Source of the DNA: a virus
Lineage: Duplodnaviria; Caudoviricetes
Reading direction: 5' to 3' (one strand)
Length of the DNA stretch: 64,000 bases
Virus record (IMG/VR): IMGVR_UViG_3300022602_000026
A program made the translations under genes and the position numbers. The notes beneath the pieces were generated by a model, which saw only the letters and a program-made list of their open reading frames with translations, had not been told where the DNA came from and made no database searches. Below are positions 4,401 through 37,199 of the stretch, one piece after another (position 1 is the first letter of the stretch; each line of letters opens with the position of its first letter).

Positions 4401-4909
4401 TAGGTTTTCCTATCAATAATGCATACCAAGTGAGTACTGTCACAGTGGATGAAGATTATCGAGGACAGGGTATTGCCAAGGCCTTGTACGGTGTTGCACT
4501 AAGCATATTAAAAATAACCTTGCTTGCCGGATCACAACAAACACCCGGCGGTAAACGTAATTGGATGAGTCTAGCACAAATTCCCGGAGTTGAAGTTCGC
4601 GGCTACGTAGAATTGGAAAACAGTGATCTTAAATATAAAAAGTTACATAAACAAAAAAATGCTAAGGATCTCGCAAGTGCAGAGAGAAGAAACGCAATAG
4701 TTGATAAAAATATCGATATTGTAATGGGACGATTGGGCGGTGACTATCTTGGAGACGACGAGGATGGCAATATGATTTTTGCTTTTGACGTAGTACCTGG
4801 TACCGGATCATTGATGCCAGCAGTAAAAACCGAATTAAACAAACTCTATTATGGTGAATACGATATGTTGTACGTAACTGGATTGTATGCACAGTGGCGT
4901 GGTGCATAA
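1403..4909 (+). CDS. 1168-aa multi-module protein: Zn-dependent nucleotide deaminase domain, two GNAT acetyltransferase domains and several unknown modules
   Basis: HAE (2744-2752) with LSPC...C deaminase motifs; VDERYRGQGIA and VDEDYRGQGIA acetyl-CoA motif A. Confidence 0.8.
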   Translation: MHLFDLFESATNYVTRIDSKPIQDFASNLKTYRHTDDWTQSGLETGDDSYWKKKNLKTQTSKGLYAGDPQFTALYATGNAHETRYVAKYGPGHPIVWFDKKDLPRIRNKKTYLTVFDADNFEKKPSGEYFSSNPGVPVKQKEISDPFQYITDQGWVIRITDNLPQVLKKLQQEKDCQYGSEGMNEDVEEGKILHPDRINLYLNLRKPNARPIQIAHNIPYKAMDAVIQKLVSKYSDVEADMFEFRPARALREEQDPAVVELLKKMNYRMWDKGEGEYGMTFNNTRLEFNSAGVFYNGPPVKGPNGVKPNFGIKWRHDPEWYSPRGEISFGLAWQMGLFPKIKGIYPYLQAMDKQGHSDRNNCLKIDQVMVKSAVDYVRSQNTPVNEDSGENDLYAAYDKILIDLCDGIVKHQKQDSDRYGLVAAAVVDPDHNVVYGINHKLPSGKRVHAERAAMANYINKYGAIPENSVIITTLSPCVDDMPDRKGPSCTELLNDSPITRVYAGYRDHSQTHLAHDEFDVVYTENKNIESVCKEIADCFLDEEATMMDPADYRGESITEAKKRRAKTLIDGMIKTLERQGRSRDEAIADIKKQVDAQFYESIDHLVEDAFNGIDINIEIQKDDEYVDDDDYDNQVMYVTATSNGRELGHVLFAFDGEYLLPQDLEVDERYRGQGIAQTMYDYVKSKGYKIRRSGQQTDAGAGFWAKHRPGQNVWEAFDQPYQIKWEKGDFGDYDALAQLEDGNYLSIMFNKDYNKHKQEGYSVEFWRNNSQEVTGEGDAQRVFATVLKAIKQFIKKTKPGFIMFSADKEPESGQSASRSKLYSRLVQRYAAAWGYSAREQDSGHKVTYELTRLDSDVDENFADGKNPGRKGLAKRSGVNTKASVSSLRKTAKHSTGEKARMAHWLANMKAGKKKHAKEAVDEDAINEIENLQSYQYTGGKDVLKHPMFTDPRAVNQKNIKPLPGGSGLNYATVDNGRFLEIRILDQSGQEAVGQLKLMRVGFPINNAYQVSTVTVDEDYRGQGIAKALYGVALSILKITLLAGSQQTPGGKRNWMSLAQIPGVEVRGYVELENSDLKYKKLHKQKNAKDLASAERRNAIVDKNIDIVMGRLGGDYLGDDEDGNMIFAFDVVPGTGSLMPAVKTELNKLYYGEYDMLYVTGLYAQWRGA

Positions 4910-5662: not shown

Positions 5663-6666
5663 AGACTATTGTTCATACCTGTAGTAGCGTATTGGTAAGG
5701 CCCAACGGTATAGTACGTTATATCAATAGTGTAATAGATCTGCAACGCAGTCTAGGGCATCGAGTTATATTTGTGACTGATGCCAAACCCACACAAAAGA
5801 TCAGCGCAGACAAAATACTTTACGTCAATGCCGAATCCGCATACATTCCCAATATGCGTGACGATCATGTGTGGTTACAGGTTTCGTCTCGGGTTGTATC
5901 ACAAATTGAGCAGGCATTTAAACAATTGGATGTAGAACCCAGTTTGGTTATTGCACACGACTTACACAGTTTTCTAGGTTGTGAACGAGAGTTCAAGGAT
6001 GGCGTTTTTGTACAACACGAAAGTGATGTAATGAACAACGACGGACGTTACAGTTTCTTAAGTGACGAATATTTGCAACAACAGATTGATGTTGTGAACC
6101 GTACCGAATGGCGAGTTGGCATGTGTGCTCCTTACAGTCATCAAATTCAGCCCAAACGACCCGTTTACACTCCGCCACCATTTGTGCCACAAGGTACAAC
6201 AGGGGCCAATCAAACACGTGGATTGTTATACATCGGTGACACTACCGATCGTAAAGGTGCCAGAGAATTCATGGCCATGGCACAGGCATTGGCAGTAACT
6301 CCAACTGTGATCACACACGAGCCTGATGCTGAATTATTTGCCGGTGCAGATGTGTATACATTTGGTCTTGATCAACGAGACGAAATGTTCAAACTGATCA
6401 GCGAATGCCGTGTTGCTTTTGTGCCCAGCAAGAACGAATGTTTTAGTTTGGCTATATTGGAGTCGGCTCAATTCATTCCCACAGTGGTTGACAGTCAGTA
6501 TCAATGGACTGAACATGTGGCGGACTTGGGTGTACTACGTGCCACCGGTGCCGAGTTGTATGCCGTAATCGATGCCGAATTACAAAGCACAACCAAATAC
6601 GATCGACGTTTGCTCGACATTTGGGCCCGCAACAGTATTCGTTTTTGGACCAACTTGACCACATGA
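5659..6666 (+). CDS. GT-B fold glycosyltransferase (GT4-like)
   Basis: N-terminal NGIVRY, YIGD...KG, and PSKNECFSLAILE (E-x7-E) motif. Confidence 0.75.
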   Translation: MKTIVHTCSSVLVRPNGIVRYINSVIDLQRSLGHRVIFVTDAKPTQKISADKILYVNAESAYIPNMRDDHVWLQVSSRVVSQIEQAFKQLDVEPSLVIAHDLHSFLGCEREFKDGVFVQHESDVMNNDGRYSFLSDEYLQQQIDVVNRTEWRVGMCAPYSHQIQPKRPVYTPPPFVPQGTTGANQTRGLLYIGDTTDRKGAREFMAMAQALAVTPTVITHEPDAELFAGADVYTFGLDQRDEMFKLISECRVAFVPSKNECFSLAILESAQFIPTVVDSQYQWTEHVADLGVLRATGAELYAVIDAELQSTTKYDRRLLDIWARNSIRFWTNLTT

Positions 6667-6947
6667 TAAAAAATATTGTCGACTACATACGCATAGACTG
6701 GCAAAGTAATCCTAGACGTTTTTGTTTAGAATTATTTTCTTGGGCCTGTGCCACCGGTAGTGCTGTAACTTTTGCCTTGACTGCACCCAATGTGCCATTT
6801 GTTCCATTGTACTTTGTTTACATATCGGGCACAGTATCTGCGGCATGGTGTTGTTATACACGTGGCAGTTTTGGCTTGATGGCCAATGCTGTTTTTATAG
6901 CCACAGTTGATTGTTTTGGTCTTGCAAGATTACTAAATATTATATAG
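6663..6947 (+). CDS. Small membrane protein
   Basis: Three hydrophobic segments; ATG at 6663 overlaps the upstream stop. Confidence 0.6.
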   Translation: MIKNIVDYIRIDWQSNPRRFCLELFSWACATGSAVTFALTAPNVPFVPLYFVYISGTVSAAWCCYTRGSFGLMANAVFIATVDCFGLARLLNII

Positions 6948-6951
6948 AGTC

Positions 6952-7003
6952 GTTGGCTATACCAACATGCAGAGTAAGTGTAAGCTCTAAATTACACAAG
7001 GAG
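6952..7003 (+). promoter_or_regulatory. Structured leader of the DNA polymerase gene (hairpin plus possible pseudoknot next to the RBS)
   Basis: GTTGG/CCAAC hairpin; AGAG/CTCT and GTGTAA/TTACAC interleaved stems; AAGGAG at 6998-7003. Confidence 0.4.
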
Positions 7004-7008
7004 TTAGT

Positions 7009-9672
7009 ATGAGTTACGTAGATGCTCTATTTGATCGAGCAAAAGATAGAATTCACGTTGTTGAACGTGTAGACGGCGAAAGAAAGTATAAAGAATACGC
7101 TGCCGAGTATGTTTTTTATTACGACGACCCCAAGGGCAAACACCGCACTATATTTGATACTCCGGTTTCAAGATTCCATACTAGAAACAGTAAAGAGTAT
7201 CACAAAGAACTAAAAGTAAATTCAGGCAAACGTTTGTGGGAAAGTGATATCAATCCCATATTTCGTTGTCTTGAATCAAACTATCTCGGGGCTACCTCGC
7301 CCCGATTACATACTGCATTTTTTGACATTGAGGTAGATTTTGATCCCGAAAAAGGTTATGCACCCACAAGCGATCCTTTTAATAAAATAACAGCCTTTTC
7401 CATTTACTTGGATTGGTTAGATAGACTTGTAACTTTGGTGGTTCCACCAAAGTCAATAAGTTGGGATACTGCTGAAGAAATCTGTAGCCGATTTGATAAC
7501 TGTTTTCTTTTTGAACGTGAAGAAGAAATGATCGATACATTTCTTGAACTAATACAAGACGCAGATATCTTAAGTGGATGGAACAGTGAGGGATTTGATA
7601 TTCCTTATACTGTGGGCCGCATTGTACGTGCCTTGAGCCGAGATGACCTAAGACGTTTGTGTTTGTGGAATCAAATGCCTAAAGAGCGTACATTTGAACG
7701 TTTTGGTGCAGAAAATATTACATTTGACTTGATTGGTCGTGTGCACATGGACTATATGCAACTGTACCGCAAGTACACATACGAAGAACGACACAGTTAT
7801 AGCTTGGATGCTATTGCCGAATACGAACTAGGCGAAAGTAAAACGCCTTATGAAGGAACTCTAGATCAGTTGTACAACAAAGACTTTCCCAAGTTTATCG
7901 AGTACAACCGACAGGATACAATGCTGATTGCAAAATTTGACAAGAAACTACGCTTTCTTGATCTTGCAAACGAATTGGCACATGATAACACAGTATTACT
8001 GGCCACTACAATGGGTGCAGTGGCAGTAACCGAGCAGGCGATTATTAACGATGCTCATCAACGTGGTATGGTAGTTCCTAACAGAAAGGGTCGTGATGAC
8101 AAAGAACAAACGCAGGCCGCAGGTGCCTATGTTGCTTATCCCAAAAGAGGTATGCACCGAGACATTGGTGCGATCGACATCAACAGTCTCTATCCCTCGG
8201 CTATTCGTGCCCTTAACATGGGACCGGAAACTATCGTCGGGCAACTCCGGCCAATAATGACCGATCTCTACATCTCGAAAAAGATGGAAGAAAACGGCGG
8301 AAACTTTGCCGAAGCATGGGAAGGTTTGTTTGGCAGTTTAGAATATACTGCTGTAATGGCAGGCGAAGTGGGTACCGAGATCACAATAGATTGGGAAGAT
8401 GGTAGAGAAAGTGTACACAGTGCCAAACAGGTATGGGACATTGTTTTTAACAGTAACCAACCTTGGACCCTGAGTGCAAATGGTACTATATTCAAATACG
8501 ACCGTAAGGGCATTATTCCTGCATTGTTGGAACGTTGGTACGCCGAGCGTAAGGAAATGCAAAAGAAACTCAAGGAAGCAGAAACAGATGAAGACAAAGC
8601 CTATTGGGACAAACGACAGTTGGTCAAAAAGATTAATCTTAATAGTTTGTATGGTGCTTTACTCAATCCTGGCTGTAGGTTTTTCGATAAACGTATTGGT
8701 CAATCTACCACACTTACCGGACGAGGAATTGCCCACCACATGGATTCGCACGTTAACGAAGCCATTACCGGGAAATACGACCACGTAGGTGATGCTGTCA
8801 TATATGGCGATACTGACTCGGTTTACTTCTCGGCCTGGCCCATGGTTCGAGAAGATGTTGAAGCCGGACGCATGGAATGGAACAAAGACATCGCTATACA
8901 GTTATATGATACCATTGCTGACAGTGTAAATGAATCGTTTCCGGCATTTATGGAACGTGCATTTCATTGTCCGCGAGAGATGGGTGCTATCATCAAGGGC
9001 GGACGTGAGCTTGTGGCATCAAAAGGTTTGTTTATTAAAAAGAAACGCTATGCAGTGCTCATCATAGACAAAGAAGGCAAACGTCTAGACACACACGGAA
9101 GCCCAGGCAAGGTAAAGGCCATGGGTTTGGACTTGAAGCGTTCAGATACTCCCAAAGTAGTACAAAACTTTTTAAGCGAGATCTTGATGGATGTGCTGAC
9201 CGGAGCCGAACGTGAAGCTATTATCGAAAAGGTAAAAGAATTTAAGATTGCATTTAAAGAGCGACCAGCCTGGGAAAAAGGCACACCTAAACGTGTAAAC
9301 AACTTGACCAAGTACACTGCCGAAGAACAACGATTGGGCCGAGCCAACATGCCCGGACACGTCAGAGCAGCAATGAACTGGAACAATCTAAAACGTATGC
9401 ATGGCGATAACTATTCTAGTGCTATTGTGGATGGTATGAAAACTATTGTATGCAAATTAAAGGATAATCCCCTAGGCTATACCAGTGTTGGTTACCCCAC
9501 TGATGTGCTACACATCCCACAATGGTTCAAAGACTTGCCGTTTGACAATAGTGCTATGGAAGGTGCTATTGTAGATCAAAAGGTAGAAAACTTACTGGGT
9601 GTTCTTGAATGGAAGATAAAAGAAAACACGGACATCGGTAGCACATTTGATAGTTTATTCAGCCAGGGCTAA
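7009..9672 (+). CDS. polB: Family B DNA polymerase (T4 gp43-like)
   Basis: Exonuclease motifs FFDIE, GWNSEGFDIPY and YNRQD; polymerase motifs DINSLYPS, KINLNSLYG and YGDTDS. Confidence 0.97.
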   Translation: MSYVDALFDRAKDRIHVVERVDGERKYKEYAAEYVFYYDDPKGKHRTIFDTPVSRFHTRNSKEYHKELKVNSGKRLWESDINPIFRCLESNYLGATSPRLHTAFFDIEVDFDPEKGYAPTSDPFNKITAFSIYLDWLDRLVTLVVPPKSISWDTAEEICSRFDNCFLFEREEEMIDTFLELIQDADILSGWNSEGFDIPYTVGRIVRALSRDDLRRLCLWNQMPKERTFERFGAENITFDLIGRVHMDYMQLYRKYTYEERHSYSLDAIAEYELGESKTPYEGTLDQLYNKDFPKFIEYNRQDTMLIAKFDKKLRFLDLANELAHDNTVLLATTMGAVAVTEQAIINDAHQRGMVVPNRKGRDDKEQTQAAGAYVAYPKRGMHRDIGAIDINSLYPSAIRALNMGPETIVGQLRPIMTDLYISKKMEENGGNFAEAWEGLFGSLEYTAVMAGEVGTEITIDWEDGRESVHSAKQVWDIVFNSNQPWTLSANGTIFKYDRKGIIPALLERWYAERKEMQKKLKEAETDEDKAYWDKRQLVKKINLNSLYGALLNPGCRFFDKRIGQSTTLTGRGIAHHMDSHVNEAITGKYDHVGDAVIYGDTDSVYFSAWPMVREDVEAGRMEWNKDIAIQLYDTIADSVNESFPAFMERAFHCPREMGAIIKGGRELVASKGLFIKKKRYAVLIIDKEGKRLDTHGSPGKVKAMGLDLKRSDTPKVVQNFLSEILMDVLTGAEREAIIEKVKEFKIAFKERPAWEKGTPKRVNNLTKYTAEEQRLGRANMPGHVRAAMNWNNLKRMHGDNYSSAIVDGMKTIVCKLKDNPLGYTSVGYPTDVLHIPQWFKDLPFDNSAMEGAIVDQKVENLLGVLEWKIKENTDIGSTFDSLFSQG

Positions 9673-9673
9673 C

Positions 9674-10612
9674 ATGAAGTTGTATGACTTAGTGAGTCTC
9701 AAAGAAGCTCTTAAACGAGAATTTGATACCGAGTTATCGATACAGGAGCTGACACGTCTACGCAATCGCATTGCGAATATTAAGTTACAGGTCAATTACT
9801 TGGATGCCGAATACGAGCAATCCGTAGACCAATGGATTGCGTATTACGACAACTTGATCTCTAAGATTAATTCTCCAATGGTTGAAAGCCAAACAAGAAT
9901 CAACGAGATCAACGATAGGATAACCGAACTGAGTCACAAATTGTTTGCCGACAGTTTTGTAATCGAAAGCAGTCAAGTCGACATTGACTTTGTTCGTGCT
10001 AATCGTAAAATTTCTTTGCCCGAAGACATGGAACAAACAGTCAAGCAACGAATACTGTTATACACTAATTGGCGTTATCCGGCATTGGAAATAGGTTGTA
10101 GAGACGGTGAATGGACACAGTATCTAGTTGCTGCTGATCCACTATATATCACCGATACATTTACAGAATTTTTAGACAACGCCAATAGTCAATTTCCCGG
10201 GGCATATCAAAATAGATTAAGAAAGTATCAGTTGAAAAATTATGACTTTTCTGCGTTACCAAAAAATCAATTTGCGTTTGTGTTTAGCTGGGGGCATTTT
10301 AATTTTCTCAGTTTAGATACCACTGGACAAATACTAAAACAACTTAGAGAATTAATGAGACCGGGAGGGGTATTTTTGTTCAGTTACAACGACGGGGATA
10401 CTCCGCAGGGAGCAGGCATGGCCGAAAACATGGCACAGACTTATTTGCCAAAAAGTCTATTAATACCCACTTGCGAGAGTTTGGGGTTTGAAATACTAAA
10501 TGATGCCAACTTGGGTCCAAATGTAACTTGGTTAGAAATTAAAAAGCCCGGTACATTACACACAGTCAAAGCACATCAAGTATTAGGCGAAGTAAAAAGA
10601 ATACAAAATTAA
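9674..10612 (+). CDS. Class I SAM-dependent methyltransferase with N-terminal coiled coil
   Basis: ALEIGCRDG motif I; FAFVFSW..F; LMRPGGVFLF. Confidence 0.75.
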   Translation: MKLYDLVSLKEALKREFDTELSIQELTRLRNRIANIKLQVNYLDAEYEQSVDQWIAYYDNLISKINSPMVESQTRINEINDRITELSHKLFADSFVIESSQVDIDFVRANRKISLPEDMEQTVKQRILLYTNWRYPALEIGCRDGEWTQYLVAADPLYITDTFTEFLDNANSQFPGAYQNRLRKYQLKNYDFSALPKNQFAFVFSWGHFNFLSLDTTGQILKQLRELMRPGGVFLFSYNDGDTPQGAGMAENMAQTYLPKSLLIPTCESLGFEILNDANLGPNVTWLEIKKPGTLHTVKAHQVLGEVKRIQN

Positions 10613-10621
10613 TCAAAAGCA

Positions 10622-10650
10622 TTGACAGGTCTAAATATAACTGTTACAAT
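10622..10650 (+). promoter_or_regulatory. sigma70-type promoter
   Basis: TTGACA-17 bp-TACAAT, then AGGAG RBS. Confidence 0.8.
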
Positions 10651-10670
10651 TACACATCATAGGAGAAACC

Positions 10671-11411
10671 ATGCAAGATTATTTAAAAGATATAGTACAA
10701 CACACAACTGGATTAGGCAACATTGATCTAATCAAGGTCACAGGAACCGACACAGAAACACTTATTAATAGCGTAAGCGAAGACCGTAGTGTTATTTTAG
10801 AAGCCAAGTTTAAATCAGCACACCCCGAGTTTATTGGCACATTTGGTATGCCAAATCTTGCAAAACTAAAAACAATTTTGAACATTGACGAGTATCGTGA
10901 AGATGCCAAGGTTTCTGTTAACACACAAACCAATACTGCCGGCGAAACAGTGCCTAGCGGCATTCACTTTGAAAACAAAGCCGGAGACTTTAAAAACGAT
11001 TATCGTTACATGGAAGCCGGTGTTATCAATGACAAACTTAAAACAGTCAAGTTTAAAGGTGTAAAGTGGGGAATTGATTTTGTGCCAACAGCGGCCAATA
11101 TTCAAAGATTGCGTTTTCAAGCAAGTGCAAACAGTGAAGAAACAACATTTACTGCCAAAACAGATGCACAAGGTAATTTGCATTTTTACTTTGGTGATCC
11201 AAATACCCATGCCGGTAATTTGGTATTTGCCAGTGGACTAAGTGGTAATTTTACAAAGACTTCGTGGCATTGGCCTGTTAACGTGGTGTTGAGTATTCTT
11301 GCATTACCTGGAGACAAGACATTTAAAATGAGTGACGAAGGCGCAAGTAAAATCACTGTTGATTCAGGCTTGATTGAATACGACTATATCATCCCTGCAC
11401 AAACAAAATAA
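10671..11411 (+). CDS. Probable DNA sliding clamp (gp45/PCNA-like)
   Basis: 246 aa, two-domain alternating beta/alpha pattern, FGMPNLAKLKTIL, near the polymerase gene; assignment by pattern only. Confidence 0.5.
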   Translation: MQDYLKDIVQHTTGLGNIDLIKVTGTDTETLINSVSEDRSVILEAKFKSAHPEFIGTFGMPNLAKLKTILNIDEYREDAKVSVNTQTNTAGETVPSGIHFENKAGDFKNDYRYMEAGVINDKLKTVKFKGVKWGIDFVPTAANIQRLRFQASANSEETTFTAKTDAQGNLHFYFGDPNTHAGNLVFASGLSGNFTKTSWHWPVNVVLSILALPGDKTFKMSDEGASKITVDSGLIEYDYIIPAQTK

Positions 11412-12409
11412 TGTCGGGTATAGCAGATGCTACACTGAAATTTTATCCTAGAGGTGCAGATGCAGGTGTTATAACACATACCTGCAATGCTCCGCATAGG
11501 GTAGTTAACATTGATACCACAGGATCATGTTATGTTTGTCATTGCGAAGCATGGTTGCCTATTTCAGTGGGCAATATTTTAGACTTTACAAGTTTAGAAC
11601 AGATATGGGATAGCGAAACTGCCAAAGAATTACAACAAGATGTTGACAGTCAAAAATTTACTTATTGTGCGGTTCGACATTGTGGAGTTGTAAATTACAA
11701 TATTGACTTTGCTCACTATCAAATTGGAGTCAACATTGACGAGAGTTGCAATCTTGCTTGTCCCAGTTGTCGTAAATCAATGACCAATCACACACAAGGC
11801 GAAGTATTTGATCTAAGAAAAAGTTATGTTGATCATTTGGTAACTCTTGTAAACAACTTTGACAAGCCGTTGAAATTGATAATGAGCGGTAACGGTGATC
11901 CACTAGCCAGTTTAATAATGCGTCCCTTGGTGCTGAACTGGCAACCAAAGAGCAACCAAACTATCAAACTGTTTACCAATGGGTTGTTAATGAAGAAGTT
12001 GTTGCCCGACAGTCCGGTGTTACCTTCGATTCGAGAATTTCAAATCAGTGTCGATGCCGGCAGTCATGATGTTTATCACGATGTTAGACGTCCGGGACGA
12101 TTTGATGTACTACAAGAAAACCTGCAATGGTTATCGGAAAATAGAAAAGGGGCCAGAGTAGATTTGCAGTTTTGCCTTCAGGCCAGTAATGCCAACGATG
12201 TTGTAAACTTTGCCGACATGTGTGATCGTTACGGATTCAATGGTAATATTGTCAAATTGGACAATTGGCATACATTTGACGACTTTGATCAGCGCGATGT
12301 AGTTGATAATAAAACACATCCGTTACATACAACAGCAATGCAACAACTAAAATTGGTTAAAGATCGCCGAAGCATCTGCATTAATTCATACCTATTGGAT
12401 TTAATATGA
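11411..12409 (+). CDS. Radical SAM protein with N-terminal Cys-rich (SPASM/twitch-like) domain
   Basis: CNLACPSC; GNGDPL; LFTNG; N-terminal C...CYVCHC...C..C. Confidence 0.85.
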   Translation: MSGIADATLKFYPRGADAGVITHTCNAPHRVVNIDTTGSCYVCHCEAWLPISVGNILDFTSLEQIWDSETAKELQQDVDSQKFTYCAVRHCGVVNYNIDFAHYQIGVNIDESCNLACPSCRKSMTNHTQGEVFDLRKSYVDHLVTLVNNFDKPLKLIMSGNGDPLASLIMRPLVLNWQPKSNQTIKLFTNGLLMKKLLPDSPVLPSIREFQISVDAGSHDVYHDVRRPGRFDVLQENLQWLSENRKGARVDLQFCLQASNANDVVNFADMCDRYGFNGNIVKLDNWHTFDDFDQRDVVDNKTHPLHTTAMQQLKLVKDRRSICINSYLLDLI

Positions 12410-13044
12410 ACTGGTTAGACCATTACCAACACAAAGGACATGTATTTGGCGAATGCATGAGTCATCAAGACAGTGAGTTAATGTATGTATATATTCCCAA
12501 AAATGCCAGCTCGTGGACCAAGCCCAACTTATTAGATTGGAAATGGGAGAATTACAATTATCACAGGGACAATTTGTATCACAAAACTGCTATAATAGTG
12601 TTACGTGATCCTGTAGATCGTTGGGTATCGGGTATTGCTGAATATATGTATCTTTACCATAAACACTTTCGACCAAATGCATCAATGCCAGTTGCCGTAC
12701 TGGATTTAATATTTGATAAAATAAGTTTTGACGATCACACCGAACGACAAATATATTTTATCGAAGGACTTGATCTAAATAAGTGTATATTTTTTAAATT
12801 TGAACATGACTATAGACACAAATTTAGCCATTTTCTTTTTACACAAAATATGCCAAATACTTATGCCAACTACGAGTTTCAACATGTCAGTGAACAAAAT
12901 CTCGAGCGGCGAAGATGGAAACAATTTATTCAGCACCAATTAGAAAATTCTAAATATATGTTTCAATTAAAACAATATTTCAAAGCCGACTACGAATTAA
13001 TTAATCAAGTAAAATTTTATGACCCAGGACAACCTAACACTTAA
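12406..13044 (+). CDS. Sulfotransferase family protein
   Basis: YVYIPKNASSW (5'-PSB-like) and VLRDPVDRWVSG (3'-PB-like) motifs. Confidence 0.75.
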   Translation: MNWLDHYQHKGHVFGECMSHQDSELMYVYIPKNASSWTKPNLLDWKWENYNYHRDNLYHKTAIIVLRDPVDRWVSGIAEYMYLYHKHFRPNASMPVAVLDLIFDKISFDDHTERQIYFIEGLDLNKCIFFKFEHDYRHKFSHFLFTQNMPNTYANYEFQHVSEQNLERRRWKQFIQHQLENSKYMFQLKQYFKADYELINQVKFYDPGQPNT

Positions 13045-14593
13045 ACAACGAGACTACGCAGTATTTTTACCGGCCATCAGCGGGTTTTATGCTACATTTA
13101 TTGGACGACAACGCACAGAACAGTATGTAGATCCTGCACGTTTTCCGCAGGGCTTAACTGATATGGAGCAACTTAATTGGCTTAACAGTCAACAGGCATT
13201 GTTTCCGTATAAATGGAGTTTGCATTCGGGCGGACATGCCAACTTGGATTTGACCAAGTTTGTCAGCAGTGAGGAAATGATACGTACACGTGAAGCGGGT
13301 ACTGTAATGATCGGAGACTCAGGCGGATTCCAAATTGCCAAGGGCTTGTGGGAAGGCGACTGGAAAGCCAATTCAGGATGTGCAGATGCACAAGGCAAAC
13401 GTGAAGCAGTGCTTAAATGGCTCGACGGCATTGCCGACTATGGCATGGGATTGGATATTCCCACTTGGGTAGTGCGTGACAAAAATGCCAGTGCCAAATG
13501 CAAAATTACCAAGCACCAAGAAGCAGTTGATGCCACAAGATTCAATAACGAATACTTTATTGCAAATCGCAAAGGCGTAAAAAATGGTGGTGCCAGGTTC
13601 TTGAATGTGTTACAAGGAGCAACACATAAAGATGCCGAAGAGTGGTATCAGACCATGAAAGACTATTGTGATCCTGCACGGTATCCCGACAAGCATTTTG
13701 ATGGTTGGGGCATGGGTGGACAAAACATGTGTGATGTACATCTTATATTGCATAGATTAATTACCATGAAGTATGATAATTTATTGCAAGAAGGCGTACA
13801 TGATTGGATGCACTTTTTAGGCACAAGCAAATTAGAATGGGCAGTATTGCTTACAGTTATTCAACGTAATGTTCGCAAATATATCAATCCCAAATTTACT
13901 ATCTCTTTTGATTGTGCAAGTCCGTTCCTAGCAACTGCCAATGGACAAGTATACTACGAAAACTCATTTCCATTAAATGGCAAATGGAGTTACCAAATGA
14001 AGAGTTGTGTCGACGACAAGAAGTATGCCACAGACACACGTAAATTCAGTACGGCATTAAAACAAGACTTTCCAAAAGAATTTGGTACGTTTGAAGACAG
14101 TCCAGTTAGTGATATGTTACAGATGAAAGATATCTGCATATACCGGCCCGGAGATCTAAACAAGAACGGCAAAGAAGGTCGAACCAGTTGGGACAGTTTT
14201 AGTTATGCATTGTTAATGGGGCATAATGTTTGGATGCATTTGACAGCAGTACAAGAAGCCAACAGACGTTTTGATGCGGGCGAGTATCCCGAAATGATGC
14301 GTACTAGTGTCACTGGCGAACGTTTTGAAGACATTGTAGAAAGTATATTTGCAGCGCCTACAAAAGAAGCCAGCATGGAAATTATTGAAAAGTACGATAG
14401 ATACTGGACCGAAATCATTGGCGGACGTGGGTTTACTGGCAAGAAACAACGTAATGCAATGACAACAACCAGCAACACCAATGTTTATGAATTAGAAGTA
14501 GATCTTTCTAAACCCAAACTAAGCAAGGCCGAAGCTAAGGCCAAAAAAGCAGCAAAGACACCAAAAATCAACACAGCAATCTTTGAGGAGTAA
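13019..14593 (+). CDS. TGT-fold transglycosylase, DpdA-like (7-deazaguanine insertion into DNA)
   Basis: IGDSGGFQI, MGLDIP, NVLQG, HFLG, SFDCAS and GHN TGT motifs; folE, queD and queE in the same region. Confidence 0.85.
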   Translation: MTQDNLTLKQRDYAVFLPAISGFYATFIGRQRTEQYVDPARFPQGLTDMEQLNWLNSQQALFPYKWSLHSGGHANLDLTKFVSSEEMIRTREAGTVMIGDSGGFQIAKGLWEGDWKANSGCADAQGKREAVLKWLDGIADYGMGLDIPTWVVRDKNASAKCKITKHQEAVDATRFNNEYFIANRKGVKNGGARFLNVLQGATHKDAEEWYQTMKDYCDPARYPDKHFDGWGMGGQNMCDVHLILHRLITMKYDNLLQEGVHDWMHFLGTSKLEWAVLLTVIQRNVRKYINPKFTISFDCASPFLATANGQVYYENSFPLNGKWSYQMKSCVDDKKYATDTRKFSTALKQDFPKEFGTFEDSPVSDMLQMKDICIYRPGDLNKNGKEGRTSWDSFSYALLMGHNVWMHLTAVQEANRRFDAGEYPEMMRTSVTGERFEDIVESIFAAPTKEASMEIIEKYDRYWTEIIGGRGFTGKKQRNAMTTTSNTNVYELEVDLSKPKLSKAEAKAKKAAKTPKINTAIFEE

Positions 14594-14595
14594 GT

Positions 14596-14775
14596 ATGGA
14601 TCGGTTAACCGAATTACAAAAGAGACATGCCACATTGGACAAACGTATAGACGCGATGAAGAAGACCGGACTTTATGGCGATACTGTTTTGGGAGAAATG
14701 AAGAAAGAAAGGTTGCATTTGCGTGATGAAATTGCTATACTAGAACAACAACAAACACATGCGGACAAAGAATGA
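14596..14775 (+). CDS. 59-aa DUF465/YdcH-like coiled-coil protein (not in the ORF track)
   Basis: Translated by hand: MDRLTELQKRHATLDKRIDAM...MKKERLHLRDEI; fills the gap with an overlapping stop/start. Confidence 0.65.
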   Translation: MDRLTELQKRHATLDKRIDAMKKTGLYGDTVLGEMKKERLHLRDEIAILEQQQTHADKE

Positions 14776-15281
14776 ACAGACAAGGGCACGAAACTGCTAG
14801 TTTCTTTTTTGGCAAGGAAGTAGAACATACTCCGGCACTGGGACTGGATACATTATTTGTAGTTGGAGTTCAAAGCACCGACGCAATTGCAAATGCATTG
14901 TCTGGAACTAGTCGACAAATACAACATATTTTCTTTGGTGCGAATCACAGTTTTGATCCGCAAACTCCCGAAGAATGGGACGCCTGGGAAAATATGATCA
15001 CATTCTTTTTGGCTCGAGACTATTGGTGCAGTTTGGATATTCCCATCGGCGCAGTTGAACCGTTCAACGATGGCGGATTAAACGATTACAACAATTTTAT
15101 TCCGCAGATAAGAATCCCAATTCCTTATATTAAATTATGGAATTATAATACCATGCTTAAAATCGATGACAAGGATTTTGCAGCAACCAATCCTGGTGTG
15201 TGGACACATAGTTTACATAACCTAAAAGACCGCAACGTATTCACAGATTGGTCCGAATACAAAAATGATCAAGTATTATGA
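14772..15281 (+). CDS. Hypothetical protein
   Basis: 169-aa ORF coupled to both neighbours. Confidence 0.7.
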   Translation: MNRQGHETASFFFGKEVEHTPALGLDTLFVVGVQSTDAIANALSGTSRQIQHIFFGANHSFDPQTPEEWDAWENMITFFLARDYWCSLDIPIGAVEPFNDGGLNDYNNFIPQIRIPIPYIKLWNYNTMLKIDDKDFAATNPGVWTHSLHNLKDRNVFTDWSEYKNDQVL

Positions 15282-15862
15282 TATTACCAACAGAACGAAT
15301 TATAGTCAGCTTAATTAGAAATTTAATTATTGGACGACAACTGCCCACTAATCAACACGGCGAAGCAGGACGTGCTGCCGAAGACTTGTTAGAAAGCATT
15401 GGAGTTCCTATTAATCGAGGGCCAGGTTGCGACATACAAGAATTTGATTGGGAAGTCAAAACTCGTAACGACAGTGCTACCAGTGCACAAACTATTGCCA
15501 CTATACATCCTAGAGATGTTGCTGCTTACCCGTATAAGCAATCACCTATTTACACAAAGTTTAGAAAACAACTTAGAATCACAACATCCACACAGAATAC
15601 CATTGATAATACTATCATTGCAGTTGATTTAATTGATTTTGATCAACCGCATGTGCAGGATCTAATAGAAGCAGCATACGAACATGGCCGACGACAGATC
15701 ATTGCCAATCCCGATATTGGCTACACACAGTACTTGGGCTATTATGGATACTTTGAACAAACAAAACAAAGTTCCAAGAACTATGATTTTAGACTCAGCG
15801 ACCAAGACATGGATGCATTGATTGCATCTGCAACTTCAACATTTGGAACTTTATTTTCATGA
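15278..15862 (+). CDS. Putative PD-(D/E)XK restriction-endonuclease-like protein (MvaI/BcnI/MutH-like)
   Basis: GEAGRAAEDLL...N.G.GCD....WEVKT...S.QT pattern. Confidence 0.55.
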   Translation: MILPTERIIVSLIRNLIIGRQLPTNQHGEAGRAAEDLLESIGVPINRGPGCDIQEFDWEVKTRNDSATSAQTIATIHPRDVAAYPYKQSPIYTKFRKQLRITTSTQNTIDNTIIAVDLIDFDQPHVQDLIEAAYEHGRRQIIANPDIGYTQYLGYYGYFEQTKQSSKNYDFRLSDQDMDALIASATSTFGTLFS

Positions 15863-32146: not shown

Positions 32147-32650
32147 ATGAATCCCGATCGCGACCTCGCAGTAGACAGTGCCAAATTTGAATACATCTGG
32201 CCCAAGGCCTATCCCTATTATTCCAAGATCCCGCTTGTGACAAAGTTTGTACGCAAACTGGTCCAAGACGACATTATTGGACTAGGGCAGATGTTTGAAA
32301 AGGCAATCAGTGTGCAATGCCGAATTGTACGCGAAAGCACGAGAGGGCGCGACTTTAAAAATGGTGATGATGCCAAATTGGTCGTAGTTAGGACTCATAC
32401 TCGCGGTACAGCTTATGCTGCTCCGGTCACCAACATTCATGCCAAGACCGGAAACTTGTTGATAGCGGTGTACGAGCGCAAACAAAAGAAATGGTATCAC
32501 TTCAAGATCCCGTATGCGGCATACAAACATATTCCTGCGTCAAGTAACATTGACATTGTGTTTGAACTGGATGGAACGCCCAAACGAAAAAATCGTCAAA
32601 GCGTCAATTGGTGGAATTACGAAGTCGCGACCTTTAAGGATCTAGCATGA
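32147..32650 (+). CDS. Hypothetical protein, possibly PD-(D/E)XK nuclease-like
   Basis: G..FE.AI ... RDF..G.DAK pattern; weak. Confidence 0.4.
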   Translation: MNPDRDLAVDSAKFEYIWPKAYPYYSKIPLVTKFVRKLVQDDIIGLGQMFEKAISVQCRIVRESTRGRDFKNGDDAKLVVVRTHTRGTAYAAPVTNIHAKTGNLLIAVYERKQKKWYHFKIPYAAYKHIPASSNIDIVFELDGTPKRKNRQSVNWWNYEVATFKDLA

Positions 32651-33696
32651 GTTATTTAGATGTAATACGTACCAAGTACGATATTAAAGACTACAAAGAA
32701 GCAAAAGTAGAAATACCCAAACTTCCCACAGAAGGTATTGTGTTGATTGTGGGCACTAGTGGTAGTGGCAAGAGTACTATACTACGAAGTTTAGGCGAAC
32801 TCAAGCAACCCTACATAGATGATGAAGCCTATGTAATCGATAACTTTAGCTCACCCGAACGCGGTGAAGAACTGTTGTTAAGTTGTGGATTGCGTACTAT
32901 ACCTGCTTGGTTTAGACCGCCTGTTACACTCAGCAATGGTGAACGGCATAGATTTGAAATGGCCATGAGTTTGGATCAAGGTATCAACACCATTGATGAA
33001 TTCACCAGTGTGGTGGATCGTGATACTGCCAAGAGTTTAGCATACAGTGTTCGCAAGTATTATGATCGACAGGCAGACGGTAAGCCGTTATACATTGCCA
33101 GTTGCCACAGGGACATAGTAGAATGGTTAGACCCCGACTACGTATATGACACGGACTTACGTGTCTTAGAAAACCGGAGGTCACTTCATCGATTGGGGCG
33201 ACCCTCCATTACTCTCACCATCCGCAGCGCAAGTAGCACGTATTGGCGACTGTTTGGTAAGTATCACTATCTAGACACTGCACTGGCCAAAGGTGCACAT
33301 TGTTATGTGGGCCTAATAGACAACAAGCCGGTGGTGTTTGGTGCTGTTATTCATAGCACCAGCGGAACACTACACAGTTATTGGCGTGGTCATAGAACTG
33401 TGGTGCTACCCGAGTTTCAAGGCCTGGGTATTGGATCGGCATTCAGTGATGCAGTAGCAGAAATATATCACAGTCGCGGCCTGTTGTATTACAGCAAGAC
33501 TGCACATCCTGCGTTTGGCGAGCATAGGAATCGTAGTCCTCTATGGCAAGCCACTAGCACCAATGGCAAAAGTCGTGCTAACAGTTATTTAAACAAGGAT
33601 GGCACCAAGCGAGCCATGCCCGGCTATGGTGGAACTACTGTGGAACGCGATGCAGCTCGTGTGTGCTATTCACACAAATACATTGGAAAAAGTTAG
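32647..33696 (+). CDS. ABC-ATPase/GNAT acetyltransferase fusion
   Basis: GTSGSGKST Walker A, LSNGE signature, IDEF Walker B, ASCH H-loop, then RTVVLPEFQGLGIG GNAT motif A. Confidence 0.85.
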   Translation: MSYLDVIRTKYDIKDYKEAKVEIPKLPTEGIVLIVGTSGSGKSTILRSLGELKQPYIDDEAYVIDNFSSPERGEELLLSCGLRTIPAWFRPPVTLSNGERHRFEMAMSLDQGINTIDEFTSVVDRDTAKSLAYSVRKYYDRQADGKPLYIASCHRDIVEWLDPDYVYDTDLRVLENRRSLHRLGRPSITLTIRSASSTYWRLFGKYHYLDTALAKGAHCYVGLIDNKPVVFGAVIHSTSGTLHSYWRGHRTVVLPEFQGLGIGSAFSDAVAEIYHSRGLLYYSKTAHPAFGEHRNRSPLWQATSTNGKSRANSYLNKDGTKRAMPGYGGTTVERDAARVCYSHKYIGKS

Positions 33697-34088
33697 GCAC
33701 TAGCAAGTTCTTGTTCACCTTGCGGAGTCAAGAACCAAAATCCATCGCCAGGAGTTACAATCAATCCCGCACTTTCTAGACTGTCATAAACACGTTGTTG
33801 ACTATCTGTAACGCCACGTATGTCTTGTTGAAAGTCTAATTTATGGTTATTAGCAACGTCAATTGCTTTCAACAACAATAGTTTGCCGTATCCTTGCCCT
33901 AGAAAACGGCCGTCAACTTCCACTTCATTATTGACATCATCAGTGTCAGGATCTCGAACAAAATTAAAATGACCTATGCGTTTGCCCTGAGCCGATAAGG
34001 TGATTTGAAAACTACTTGCGAAATTGTCAGGTGTATGTACTGCAAATTGTAGTCCCGATGATTCTGTTAGGATTTCTGTTATTCGCAT
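33693..34088 (-). CDS. GNAT acetyltransferase-like protein with MRITEILTE leader
   Basis: VEVDGRFLGQGYGKLL motif A. Confidence 0.7.
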   Translation of the reverse strand: MRITEILTESSGLQFAVHTPDNFASSFQITLSAQGKRIGHFNFVRDPDTDDVNNEVEVDGRFLGQGYGKLLLLKAIDVANNHKLDFQQDIRGVTDSQQRVYDSLESAGLIVTPGDGFWFLTPQGEQELASA

Positions 34089-34702
34089 TATGTGTACACC
34101 AAACTGTCTATTCTTTTGTAGCGAATGTTAAATGCGTTCATTAGTAATTCTACTTCGCGCAAACATTGATCTCGTGCCCCGCCAACTATATAAGCACCAC
34201 TAAAACGTTTTAATTGTGCAATACTGGTCCAATTAACACTAATAGGATCATCTTCCATTTCCTGCATAGCACCCATGATCAAACTCTGTTGTGGAGTGCG
34301 TCTGTTAGATGCAGGAAATTGTAATTCTCTACTGTCACTTTTCTTTTGTTGATATAGTTCACGTATAGTGGCAATAATTGTTGCAGACTCTATTCCCGAA
34401 TCCATCCAGCTTCTTAAATAACCATAGCCTTTGTCCGCTATTTGAACTCTACGCCAATTCTCAGGAGCAAATCCCGAATCGTCCCAATATTCTTTAATAC
34501 TTTGAATAGTATCTCCACTGAGTCCTTGATCTTCTGCGTTGACAAACATCAATACTGGTCCGGTTTGATGGTTTACAAATTGAATAATTTCTGTGAATAC
34601 GGAGTTTTCATCACCGTCATTCATGCCCGAATATTCAGGTTGTACATCCACCACTATAACAGGGTGTGCTCGGCCTTCTGTGATGATTTCTTGTATACGC
34701 AT
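34088..34702 (-). CDS. Isochorismatase/cysteine-hydrolase-fold protein with MRIQEIITE leader
   Basis: VIVVDVQPEY N-terminal motif; IVGGARDQCL catalytic-Cys region. Confidence 0.55.
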   Translation of the reverse strand: MRIQEIITEGRAHPVIVVDVQPEYSGMNDGDENSVFTEIIQFVNHQTGPVLMFVNAEDQGLSGDTIQSIKEYWDDSGFAPENWRRVQIADKGYGYLRSWMDSGIESATIIATIRELYQQKKSDSRELQFPASNRRTPQQSLIMGAMQEMEDDPISVNWTSIAQLKRFSGAYIVGGARDQCLREVELLMNAFNIRYKRIDSLVYT

Positions 34703-34711
34703 TATATTGGG

Positions 34712-35437
34712 TTATTTCATATCTGCAAGTGGGTCAAACAACACCACGTGACCATCACTGCCCATGGCGTAGTTGTTTATGTTGTCAAAATCAACATACA
34801 CATTTCCGTTGTATAATCGGTATGAATTTTTTCGTGCTATTCCTACTAAATCTAACACTGTTTGAACAAATTGTTGTAATTTTTCTTCACCGCCCAAATA
34901 AGTGATAGCAGTTGCTACCCACAGTTGTTCTTCTCTACTGGCTCGTGGATTTTGAAATTGACTCTCAGAGTCTTTTCTGGGCTCCTTGTCTACAAATCTT
35001 TTTAAGAATTGCTGGTATACGTTTTTGTTTTGAGCGTTATGGTATATCCAATTTGCCATGACATAAACCCCCCTCACTACTCCTTGACGCCCTTTAAACG
35101 GAAACAATCGTTCCATTCTGATCTGCAAATAGGGACGACCTTGATACATAAACTGATTCCACCCCGACATCTGTGGTAGAAATTCATTGTCAGGATGTTG
35201 TTGGCAATAATCAGCAAACAATTTAAAAACTTTTTGTGGCCTAGTAAGTTCACCTGCGACATCATCTGACTTGAATAAGTTTGTGCCCAATATCTTGAGC
35301 ACCATGCCAGTATCAGGTTCTAAAAAGGCCATACTGTCACCGCCTTGACCAAGATATTGATATCCACGACTGATTAAGTCAGCCTTGATGCTGCGACTGT
35401 GTGCTGAGGCTTCTGTAAGGATTTCTGTTATTCGCAT
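34712..35437 (-). CDS. Protein-kinase-like protein with MRITEILTE leader
   Basis: LGQGGDSMAF Gly-loop, VLKI, RMERL, DFDNINN, VLFDP; start placed at 35437 from the shared leader. Confidence 0.6.
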   Translation of the reverse strand: MRITEILTEASAHSRSIKADLISRGYQYLGQGGDSMAFLEPDTGMVLKILGTNLFKSDDVAGELTRPQKVFKLFADYCQQHPDNEFLPQMSGWNQFMYQGRPYLQIRMERLFPFKGRQGVVRGVYVMANWIYHNAQNKNVYQQFLKRFVDKEPRKDSESQFQNPRASREEQLWVATAITYLGGEEKLQQFVQTVLDLVGIARKNSYRLYNGNVYVDFDNINNYAMGSDGHVVLFDPLADMK

Positions 35438-35441
35438 GTTG

Positions 35442-35448
35442 TATTTAT
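35442..35448 (-). promoter_or_regulatory. T4-late-like promoter ATAAATA for the antisense three-gene cassette
   Basis: Minus strand reads cATAAATAcaacATG. Confidence 0.6.
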
Positions 35449-35471
35449 GTTGTTTTCCCGCAACAGTCAAT

Positions 35472-35500
35472 TTGTCCAGAAATGACACTTTTGCTATAAT
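35472..35500 (+). promoter_or_regulatory. sigma70-type promoter, AATG-spacer class
   Basis: TTGTCC-agaAATGacacttttgc-TATAAT. Confidence 0.75.
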
Positions 35501-35531
35501 ATGAACATAGTAAGAAATTAGGAGTTGAACA

Positions 35532-35762
35532 ATGTTACAAGCCGTATTTGAAAATACCGTAAAATCACAAGTTGTTGCATACGACGCAACGGCAAACCCT
35601 AGCTTCGTTAACGGCTCTCTTTTTGTAGAGTTTGTTGCTGATGCTGATTTCACTGCAGAATCAAAAGCACGCCAGGTGCTTAACGAACTCAAGTGCCTTA
35701 ATTACCGAGTTCAACTGGCCGGCCCAATTGGCAACGAATACGCATACGATTTTGTTGCGTAA
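35532..35762 (+). CDS. Hypothetical early protein
   Basis: 76 aa; own promoter and AGGAG RBS. Confidence 0.65.
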   Translation: MLQAVFENTVKSQVVAYDATANPSFVNGSLFVEFVADADFTAESKARQVLNELKCLNYRVQLAGPIGNEYAYDFVA

Positions 35763-35776
35763 TTGCAACACCACGT

Positions 35777-35805
35777 TTGCTCAGAAAAGACGTTTAAGTT
35801 ATAAT
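35777..35805 (+). promoter_or_regulatory. sigma70-type promoter (AAAG spacer variant)
   Basis: TTGCTC-agaAAAGacgtttaagt-TATAAT. Confidence 0.6.
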
Positions 35806-35833
35806 AAGATATAGTGAAAAACAAGGATTTGCA

Positions 35834-36046
35834 ATGATTCAGGACTATGGAATGTTTACCCCAGAAGGCAATGCGGCAGTTCACGGCATTGTTTTATTAA
35901 GTCGTGTACATGAGCAGAGCTGGCTCTGCACTTGGCAAGCCCTGGTTAATCTTGCTCGAGAACCTGGCTTTGAAGAAGCCACAGACACTATGGTTCGTGA
36001 AATTGTTTACGACGCCTGCAAATTTACAACAGATTTTTATGTCTAA
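35834..36046 (+). CDS. Hypothetical early protein
   Basis: 70 aa; own promoter and AAGGA RBS. Confidence 0.65.
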   Translation: MIQDYGMFTPEGNAAVHGIVLLSRVHEQSWLCTWQALVNLAREPGFEEATDTMVREIVYDACKFTTDFYV

Positions 36047-36047
36047 T

Positions 36048-36076
36048 TTGACACGAAATGACAATCGCAATATAAT
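36048..36076 (+). promoter_or_regulatory. Consensus sigma70 promoter, AATG-spacer class
   Basis: TTGACA-cgaAATGacaatcgcaa-TATAAT. Confidence 0.9.
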
Positions 36077-36098
36077 ACATTTTTAACTAGGAGAAACT

Positions 36099-37199
36099 AT
36101 GTCAGTAGCAGAACACCGCACCGTTAGTCCCACAGAAGCACGTAGTCGCGTTTTACGTTGTTTTAAGAATAAACGTCCAGTATTTTTATGGGGCCCTCCC
36201 GGCATCGGTAAGAGTGAACTGGTAGCAGATTTGACCGCAGAACTTGGCGGACACATGATTGACTTGCGTTTGGGTCAAATGGAGCCCACAGACATTCGTG
36301 GTATTCCATTCTTTAACAAGACAAACGAAAAGATGGATTGGGCTCCTCCAATTGACTTGCCTGACGAAGAAATGGCTAGTAAGTATCCAATCGTTGTGCT
36401 ATTTTTAGATGAGATGAATTCAGCGGCACCCAGTGTGCAGGCAGCTGGTTATCAACTTATTCTTAACAGACGTATCGGTAAGTATGTGCTTCCAGACAAT
36501 GTGGTTATTGTTGCGGCCGGTAACAGAGAATCTGATAAAGGTGTTAGTTACAGAATGCCAAGTCCCTTAGCCAATCGCTTTGTTCACTTGGAAGTTAAAT
36601 GTGACTTTGATTCGTGGTTCCAATGGGCCGTTAATCACAACATCCACCAGGACGTAGTAGGTTACATTGGCTTTGCTAAACAGGCTTTGTTTGAGTTTGA
36701 TCCCAAGAGTGCTAGTCGCAGTTTCGCTACTCCACGCTCATGGAGTTTTGTTAGTGACTTCTTGCAAGACGAAGATGCTAGCGATGCAGAGCTTACAGAC
36801 TTGATTTCAGGTACTGTAGGTGAAGGTACTGGTATTAGTTTTATGGCGCATCGTAAGGTGGCAGGTCAAATGCCCAAGCCCGAAGATGTGTTGAGCGGTA
36901 AGGTCAAAGAGCTTAAAGTAAAAGAAGTCAGTGCTATGTACAGTTTGACAATCTCCATGTGCTATGAATTGCAAGATCAGTACAAGAAGTTGGGCAAGGA
37001 AAAACTTGCAGACTGGCATGCACAGGCCGACAACTTCCTGGGCTTTATGATGGCGAACTTTAGCACAGAGTTGGTGGTTATGGGTGCAAGAGTTGCGCTT
37101 ACAACTTACAACTTGCCCATGGTACCTGGCAAGATGAAGAACTTTGACGAGTTCCATAAACGCTTTGGCAAGTACATTATTGCTGCTAGCGGTAAGTAA
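36099..37199 (+). CDS. MoxR-like AAA+ ATPase
   Basis: GPPGIGKS, DLRL, LFLDEMN, AAGNR, LANRF, ATPRSW. Confidence 0.9.
   Translation: MSVAEHRTVSPTEARSRVLRCFKNKRPVFLWGPPGIGKSELVADLTAELGGHMIDLRLGQMEPTDIRGIPFFNKTNEKMDWAPPIDLPDEEMASKYPIVVLFLDEMNSAAPSVQAAGYQLILNRRIGKYVLPDNVVIVAAGNRESDKGVSYRMPSPLANRFVHLEVKCDFDSWFQWAVNHNIHQDVVGYIGFAKQALFEFDPKSASRSFATPRSWSFVSDFLQDEDASDAELTDLISGTVGEGTGISFMAHRKVAGQMPKPEDVLSGKVKELKVKEVSAMYSLTISMCYELQDQYKKLGKEKLADWHAQADNFLGFMMANFSTELVVMGARVALTTYNLPMVPGKMKNFDEFHKRFGKYIIAASGK

Follow-up and report, generated by a model that had tools for sequence, protein, structure and literature searches.

Why should three adjacent phage genes, whose products are otherwise unrelated, begin with almost the same nine amino acids? 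The question is raised by a 64-kb stretch of DNA (64,000 nucleotides, nt; referred to here as the window) from the IMG/VR virus record IMGVR_UViG_3300022602_000026, a member of the Caudoviricetes. Three consecutive minus-strand genes in the window, here named A, B and C, encode a kinase-like protein, an isochorismatase-like protein and a putative GNAT acetyltransferase, and each carries an N-terminal leader, read as MR-ITE-ILTE in A and C and as MRIQE-IITE in B. The original prediction, made from the letters of the window, held that this leader is a portable packaging tag comparable to the capsid targeting sequence (CTS) of phage T4. The observation is confirmed and is much broader than that prediction saw. 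The nine-residue leader is probably the version of the T4 CTS used by this lineage, with the tagged proteins being packed into heads and injected into the host.

The leader and the proteins that carry it

A scan of all six frames of the window with the pattern M[RK]I.E[IL]..E, and with looser forms of it, returns exactly three matches, all at the starts of A, B and C; together with the open reading frames (ORFs), it bears out the claim that three adjacent minus-strand genes share a leader. Two of the leaders were also said to share their DNA, and this is the case. The 20-mer ATGCGAATAACAGAAATCCT is present in two copies, at the starts of A and C, where 0.01 would be expected by chance, and the two genes are identical at 26 of 27 nt within the leader and at 9 of the 33 nt that follow. 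When the leader is removed, BLASTP among A, B and C gives no significant match (best E = 5), in agreement with the claim that the proteins are unrelated beyond it. The three genes lie where the cassette had been placed, but gene A starts at 35437 and not at 35448, a position that takes in an upstream box.

The motif scan of relatives that had been proposed was run as two censuses. The first covered the window and 40 IMG/VR loci around homologues of B (686 kb), searched in six frames with the pattern M[RK]xx[ED][FILVMY]xxE. In this set 109 of 110 matches open an ORF of at least 60 amino acids (aa), and the proteins, 85 of them unique, group into 31 BLAST clusters. When IMG/VR was scanned for one codon version of MRAxEFITE, at least 120 stretches had it, often on contigs 100-350 kb long, and with these stretches added the wider census took in 160 loci and 1.65 Mb of related viral contigs. 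Here, 336 of 342 six-frame matches open an ORF and 316 are the first Met of the ORF; the 298 unique proteins, with a median length of 138 aa, form 45 BLAST clusters. Present on at least 45 unrelated cargo clusters, and always at the extreme N-terminus, the leader is portable by this comparison, as had been predicted. A literature search, itself incomplete, found no paper describing this leader, and an earlier description is possible.

Over the 298 proteins the consensus is M-(R/K)-(A/I)-x-E-(F/I/L)-(I/L/V)-x-E, in which E5, the hydrophobic residues 6-7 and E9 are kept, and E9 is mostly followed by S, G, A, Q or D. Homologues of A, B and C retain the leader down to 35% identity, most commonly in the form MRAxEF(I/L)TE. 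The kept residues are encoded by synonymous codons (AGA, CGA or CGT for Arg; TTT or TTC for Phe; ATT, ATA or ATC for Ile), and selection thus acts on the peptide. The possibility that the leader is a part of each fold was rejected because it is modelled with a low predicted local distance difference test score (pLDDT), because the structural matches of B start after it, and because in two-domain relatives of B it remains at the extreme N-terminus, far from the B domain. In these fused relatives the internal junction before the B domain consists of hydrophobic-x-E followed by G (VTE-G, LTE-G, LDE-G), as would be expected for cleavage sites.

Most of the cargo proteins have no Pfam match. Those identified are LysM combined with phage lysozyme or SLT domains, amidoligase, SprT-like peptidase, DUF6267, GNATs, nucleotidyltransferase-like proteins and small very basic proteins, and the LysM-lysozyme/SLT, amidoligase, SprT-like peptidase, GNAT and basic types appear to fit proteins that are ejected. 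The largest array, at 6022-15416 of the end of a 61-kb IMG/VR contig (L028), comprises 12 consecutive same-strand leader genes, almost none with a Pfam match. Small very basic leader proteins of 64-99 aa (L034:12283-12474, L030:9775-10059 and L087:9449-9748) recall the small basic internal proteins of T4; one small basic leader protein contains NFADGRKPGRKG, a motif that also follows the leader in the longer C homologues P0136-P0142.

Comparison with T4 and related head-targeting systems

In the T4 record, the internal proteins (IPs) IPII and IPIII start with MKTYQEFIAE followed by A, and IPI, which starts with MKTFKEF, is cut after ITE-19. For encapsidation, the N-terminal ten residues of IPIII are sufficient, and the tag takes foreign proteins into heads (PMC9026906, PMC3012670); within the CTS, residues 4 and 7 are involved in targeting and residues 8 and 10 in processing (PMC9026906). 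The core and internal proteins of T4 are all cut by gp21 after Glu, Alt being cut at ITE-6 and LTE-619, and the CTS-tagged IPs and Alt are injected (PMC5694885). The predicted likeness of the leader to the CTS and to gp21 sites holds on comparison with these sequences. Both tags are short N-terminal stretches ending in Glu, with I or L two residues before it and a small residue after it, and they have an xEF(I/L)xE core in common (MKTYQEFIAE-A in T4 and MRAxEFITE-G/A/S here), nine residues being too few for statistics. The ITE and LTE cut sites of Alt are both contained in MRITEILTE. In addition, both systems place a tag on unrelated proteins and have variable loci, and relatives of the window encode a gp21-type protease and a gp22-type scaffold. 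The tag differs from that of T4 in being one residue shorter and in having Arg at position 2. Whereas T4 has three small IPs and Alt, the cargo here comprises at least 45 clusters, among which are many enzymes of 13-90 kDa; a genome has about 5-11 tagged genes, and in one 19-kb locus as many as 12 stand in an array. In contrast to T4, these are uncultured freshwater-type jumbo phages, with contigs from bog-lake and freshwater samples.

The lineage is placed by sequence identity among the T4-related jumbo phages, with Phosso, PA5oct, GAP32/Rak2 and Atu_ph07: its major capsid protein (MCP) is 64-69% and its DNA polymerase 44-51% identical to the counterparts in Phosso, PA5oct, GAP32 and Atu_ph07. 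Phages of this group are reported to have an orthologue of T4 gp33 and their own sigma factors (PMC7824862). The head genes of a related 180-kb contig (G002) stand in T4 order: portal, two core proteins (the one small and basic, the other acidic), S77 protease, gp22-like scaffold and gp23-type MCP. Several leader genes lie 5-15 kb from this head module, among tail-fibre-like genes. A homing-endonuclease-like ORF (L041:764-1369) is inserted between its prohead protease and scaffold genes, and a second large endonuclease-like ORF directly follows its MCP gene. Exactly one S77 protease match, along with 5-11 leader matches, was obtained in each of five large contigs that bear the leader, three of which are complete and have terminal repeats; a reversed-pattern control on the same five contigs gives 0-1 matches. 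The gp21-like protease that the original prediction had proposed to locate is thus found in G002 and in all five of these contigs, but not in the window. When the G002 S77 protease was modelled in complex with the N-terminal 45 residues of a leader protein from the same contig, the score was 0.00, which speaks neither for nor against their interaction.

The head module itself also contains leader-like sequences. Head-core proteins of these genomes have hydrophobic-x-E within their first ten residues (e.g. MNKFEQLIE and MSQELLE). The 73-aa PA5oct protein EST35_0150, encoded between the portal and protease genes, starts with MKINDIITE, continues from G10 with GYYNPADDSSAIAHK, and is annotated as a structural protein detected in virions by ESI-MS/MS (mass spectrometry in tandem, after electrospray ionisation). 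PA5oct gp152 has been confirmed as the prohead protease, in a study that does not discuss propeptides (PMC7318152).

For A, B and C, we infer docking, cleavage, packaging and injection, as well as host targets and late timing. By means of the tag, freshly synthesised proteins would dock on the scaffolding core as the prohead assembles, and there the gp21-type (S77) protease would cut after the Glu of (I/L)-x-E, at E9 and possibly at E5 too. The mature kinase-like enzyme (~27 kDa), cysteine hydrolase (~22 kDa) and GNAT (~13 kDa) would be retained in the head and pass into the host together with the DNA, and all three would be expressed from one antisense cassette with its own TAAATA-type promoter. 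A narrower explanation is that the tag is a prohead address and is cut there, with the cargo acting in the head or in its assembly, or being degraded and lost as the core proteins are, rather than serving as an injected effector. This would suit EST35_0150, which is a head-module protein at the gene position of T4 gp67/gp68 and not an enzyme, and the acidic core proteins of the clade, which have leader-like N-termini such as the MNKFEQLIE cited above. However, the cargo consists of many kinds of folded enzyme, which are swapped fast between close relatives and fit arms-race effectors better, and the tagged IPs and Alt of T4 are injected (PMC5694885), leaving a role confined to the prohead very unlikely.

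Several findings weigh against packaging and injection. Neither a head gene nor a prohead protease was found in the 64 kb of the window, and the cassette is surrounded by replication-type rather than structural genes. PA5oct has only about two leader genes. One of them encodes EST35_0271 (L082:3382-3768; MKIKEIILE, 123 aa from that ATG), which is antisense between the plus-strand DNA polymerase III and ClpP genes, has a GenBank coding sequence annotated from an upstream start, and was not detected in PA5oct virions. A strict leader match is absent from GAP32 and from a Vibrio relative, although Phosso has leader matches at 331487 and 339080 and Atu_ph07 has one at 392813, and in several complete genomes a small head protein has a half-leader only (M-x-L-x-E...). 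In the B family E9-G10 is nearly invariant and could belong to the B domain. Finally, two leader proteins continue with what resembles an export signal: in L023:7616-8497 the leader is followed by a Tat-like SRRGFLRGLGAAG and then by LysM and SLT/lysozyme domains, and in L028:13122-13508 by a Sec-like hydrophobic stretch ending in AHA. Such signals are odd for head-internal proteins. If the leader is removed in the head, the injected protein would expose an export signal; alternatively, these two proteins never enter the head.

Some of these observations would be better accommodated if the leader were a tag for another process in the cell, such as activation or timed degradation by an AAA+ protease or chaperone of the phage or the host, membrane-proximal localisation, or export. 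The export-like signals, the location of the cassette amid non-structural genes and beside a MoxR-type AAA ATPase, the ClpP- and FtsH-like proteins encoded by relatives, and the failure to see EST35_0271 in virions all point in this direction. A tag of this kind nevertheless leaves unexplained the likeness to the T4 CTS and gp21 sites, the S77 protease in five of five contigs and in G002, and the tagged head-module protein in PA5oct virions, and is therefore considered unlikely.

Delivery from the head, the reading preferred here, has parallels outside the T4 group. In phiKZ, 201phi2-1 and SPN3US, a prohead protease related to that of T4 cuts many head-internal proteins after Glu, and the N-terminal propeptides of paralogues are identical (PMC5694885). 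These phages differ in having the motif (S/A/G)-x-E and long propeptides, with no short universal nine-residue tag described, and they form a separate, nucleus-forming group with its own RNA polymerases. The polyvalent proteins (Iyer, Burroughs, Anand, de Souza and Aravind 2017) resemble the cargo in their GNAT, lysozyme/SLT, amidoligase and metallopeptidase domains and in their predicted delivery with DNA, and fused multi-domain relatives occur here too, including a 1168-aa example in the window. In contrast to one giant polypeptide, the proteins here are mostly encoded by separate small genes, each of them tagged, and such a leader is not mentioned in the 2017 text as searched.

It is difficult to establish which proteins a phage sends into the cell along with its DNA, above all if the phage is uncultured. 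If the leader is a true capsid address, candidate injected effectors could be listed directly from the DNA of hundreds of jumbo-phage contigs, the majority belonging to families that lack a Pfam match, and the host would be manipulated early by phosphorylation, acetylation and an amide hydrolysis. The CTS principle, which in T4 serves three small internal proteins, would then be widened into a general means of delivery, and the leader would provide a natural nine-residue tag for loading foreign proteins into large capsids.

Exchange of cassette genes and signals at their starts

The cassette occupies a slot between a MoxR-like AAA ATPase gene, with an accompanying gene of 68-76 aa, and an ABC-ATPase/GNAT gene, and the contents of the slot are always antisense and leader-tagged. 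Four different gene sets are found at this one slot in close relatives. The window has A-B-C; L001, L003 and L004 have B-C; L002 and L088-L090 have B, a 246-aa GNAT-containing protein and a 296-aa protein; and L091-L094 have a 172-aa protein, B and A. Whichever gene comes first, the cassette is headed by the same promoter-like DNA, which ends in CATAAATA(C/T)A. Nucleotide homology between cassette versions runs through the leader and ends just after it, which would explain the identical 20-mer of A and C. Comparison of these versions shows that cassette content has been exchanged between related phages, apparently by recombination at the leader-coding sequence.

This swapping of slot content appears to parallel the variable ip loci of T-even phages. 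As in T4-type hyperplastic regions and ip loci, a fixed slot has content that varies between close relatives and is bordered by conserved short sequences. The border here differs in consisting of the leader-coding sequence and a TAAATA box, and not of the promoter-stem-loop (PeSL) cassettes described for T4-type phages (PMC2839356, PMC4122927). Swapping at the tag shows how arsenals of injected proteins could turn over. The chances appear even that an uncultured T4-related jumbo clade uses one peptide label to load a fast-evolving, swappable arsenal of dozens of enzyme families into the capsid for co-injection, among them kinase-like proteins, cysteine hydrolases, GNATs, nucleotidyltransferase-like proteins, lysozymes and small basic proteins. 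In that case the repertoire of injected effectors would be readable from sequence, and the DNA encoding the label would double as a recombination joint.

The original prediction had also noted an ATAAATA box ahead of the cassette, set it beside T4 late promoters and proposed late expression. The ATAAATA box does end 4 nt 5' of the ATG of A and is conserved in relatives, but the layout is not that of T4, in which TATAAATA lies ~6 nt before the transcription start and is followed by a 5' untranslated region with a Shine-Dalgarno (SD) sequence; here CATAAATA is found and there is no SD. With the box 4 nt from the ATG and an SD lacking, the transcript would be leaderless or nearly so. Of the 76 leader ORFs, 12 have a TAAATA that ends 3-8 nt before the ATG, compared with 32 of the 584 other ORFs of 100 aa or more at these loci; 19 of the 76 leader genes have an SD-like sequence. 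The occurrence of TAAATA-N4-7-ATG spacing at many non-leader genes as well indicates a general start geometry of these phages, and the recurrence of TAAATA-ATG sites without an SD suggests that some of their transcripts form a leaderless class. In L001-L040, about 44 sites have a TAAATA 3-8 nt before an SD-less ATG. Such sites are often located just past a terminator hairpin, whereas the structural genes of G002 and PA5oct have boxes of this type 25-40 nt upstream, together with an SD. The window contains 12 ATAAATA boxes.

These features raise the possibility that the element acts as nucleic acid, as a start signal for leaderless or SD-less mRNA and/or as a recombination site, with the peptide being a by-product. 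An SD-like sequence at 19 of 76 leader genes and a TAAATA 4-6 nt before the ATG at 12 of 76, which implies leaderless mRNA, are in keeping with such a role, as are the 26 of 27 leader nt shared by A and C and the cassette homology that ends right past the leader. Nevertheless, the codons vary synonymously across genes while the amino acids are kept, the internal coupled genes B and C are also tagged, and many TAAATA-ATG genes have no leader. Recombination at the leader is, moreover, compatible with a shared protein tag and expected from it, so that an element acting purely as DNA or RNA is judged highly improbable.

A sigma-70 promoter for the cassette was rejected, since none was detected when the minus strand upstream of A was scanned; the sequence TTGACT-17-TAAATA does not qualify, as the invariant T of the -10 element is absent. 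A perfect TTGACA-17-TATAAT is found at 36048-36076, 22 nt upstream of the MoxR-like AAA ATPase gene, and a second sigma-70-like site, with a TG extension, at 35472-35500, before the 76-aa gene. Late expression of the cassette, which runs antisense to these genes with sigma-70-type promoters, is for this reason plausible. A start of A at an upstream TTG (ORF to 35692) was likewise rejected, as an accidental in-frame extension through the promoter region, because relatives have this same upstream DNA, with its promoters, in front of different genes.

The three enzymes and their setting

The calls of kinase-like, isochorismatase-like and GNAT proteins in the original prediction are upheld, by Foldseek for A, by the VIA search for B and by homologues with PF00583 for C; PHROGs gave nothing useful for any of the three. 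Gene A, for which 12 homologues were found, has an AlphaFold model with a pLDDT of 67.6, in which the leader falls below 50 and the C-terminal 35 residues are unmodelled. The top 50 Foldseek matches are all protein kinases, with E of ~4e-3 and ~130 columns aligned. Conserved in the family are a Gly-rich loop and a VLKI strand; D216, N222 and D235, candidates for the catalytic Asp/Asn and metal-binding Asp of kinases, are invariant, with a one-residue insertion in the window copy. On this model, A appears kinase-like.

Gene B has 813 metagenomic homologues. No Pfam match was obtained for B, and a profile compared with PDB sequences likewise gave none. Its AlphaFold model, built from 68 homologues, has a pLDDT of 89.5 (60 for the first ten residues). 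Foldseek against the PDB gave no clear fold match. The first 28 places of the exhaustive VIA search are all taken by isochorismatase-family cysteine hydrolases (Z 8.3-10.4; root mean square deviation about 3 A; 119-137 residues aligned), including nicotinamidase PncA, N-carbamoylsarcosine amidase and RutB, and the matches begin at about residue 9-12. D19 (VVDVQ), K91 and C180 (GGARDQC) are invariant in the 68 sequences, appear to stand at family signature positions and are candidates for the Asp-Lys-Cys catalytic triad. The predicted structure of B is thus an isochorismatase-like fold. An invariant His is absent from the 68 sequences, making a metal-dependent nicotinamidase with PncA-type metal binding of substrate unlikely. 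A link of this PncA-type amidase fold to nicotinamide adenine dinucleotide (NAD) metabolism is possible. Infection by PA5oct raises the host pncA-pncB1-nadE NAD salvage operon (PMC7318152).

C appears to be a minimal GNAT, weakly so by Pfam, where Acetyltransf_1 scores 19.7 bits against a cut-off of 20.7, and with the backing of homologues P0134 and P0135, which carry PF00583 and have the JGI name GNAT. The acetyl-CoA motif A is present as RFLGQGYG, and the PDB matches are weak.

Positions of the cassette, its signals and the borders of the slot in the window
Feature	Position	Strand	Remarks
Gene A	34712..35437	(-)	241 aa; MRITEILTE-A start, then protein-kinase-like domain
Leader codons of A	35411..35437	(-)	26/27 nt same as leader of C
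Gene B	34088..34702	(-)	204 aa; MRIQEIITE-G start; predicted isochorismatase/nicotinamidase-like cysteine-hydrolase fold
Gene C	33693..34088	(-)	131 aa; MRITEILTE-S start; putative small GNAT acetyltransferase
CATAAATAC box	35441..35449	(-)	4 nt 5' of ATG of A; contains ATAAATA
Divergent intergenic region	35438..35531		between cassette and plus-strand 76-aa gene; plus-strand sigma-70-like site inside
Right border of slot, conserved	32647..33696	(+)	P-loop/ABC-type ATPase fused to GNAT (phrog_11143); converges on C
Left border of slot, conserved	35532..37199	(+)	76-aa gene and MoxR-like AAA ATPase (phrog_1297)

The sizeable neighbouring ORFs are all on the plus strand, opposite to A-B-C. GenBank phages, searched at the DNA and protein levels, gave no match to the cassette or to A, B or C. 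At the B/C junction the ATG of C overlaps the stop of B in the sequence TAATG, through which B and C are predicted to be translationally coupled. At the other end of C, its stop codon and that of the convergent ABC-ATPase/GNAT gene overlap by 4 nt (33693-33696), so that neither strand has space for a terminator there. The 1168-aa multi-domain ORF of the window lies well outside the cassette, at 1403-4909.

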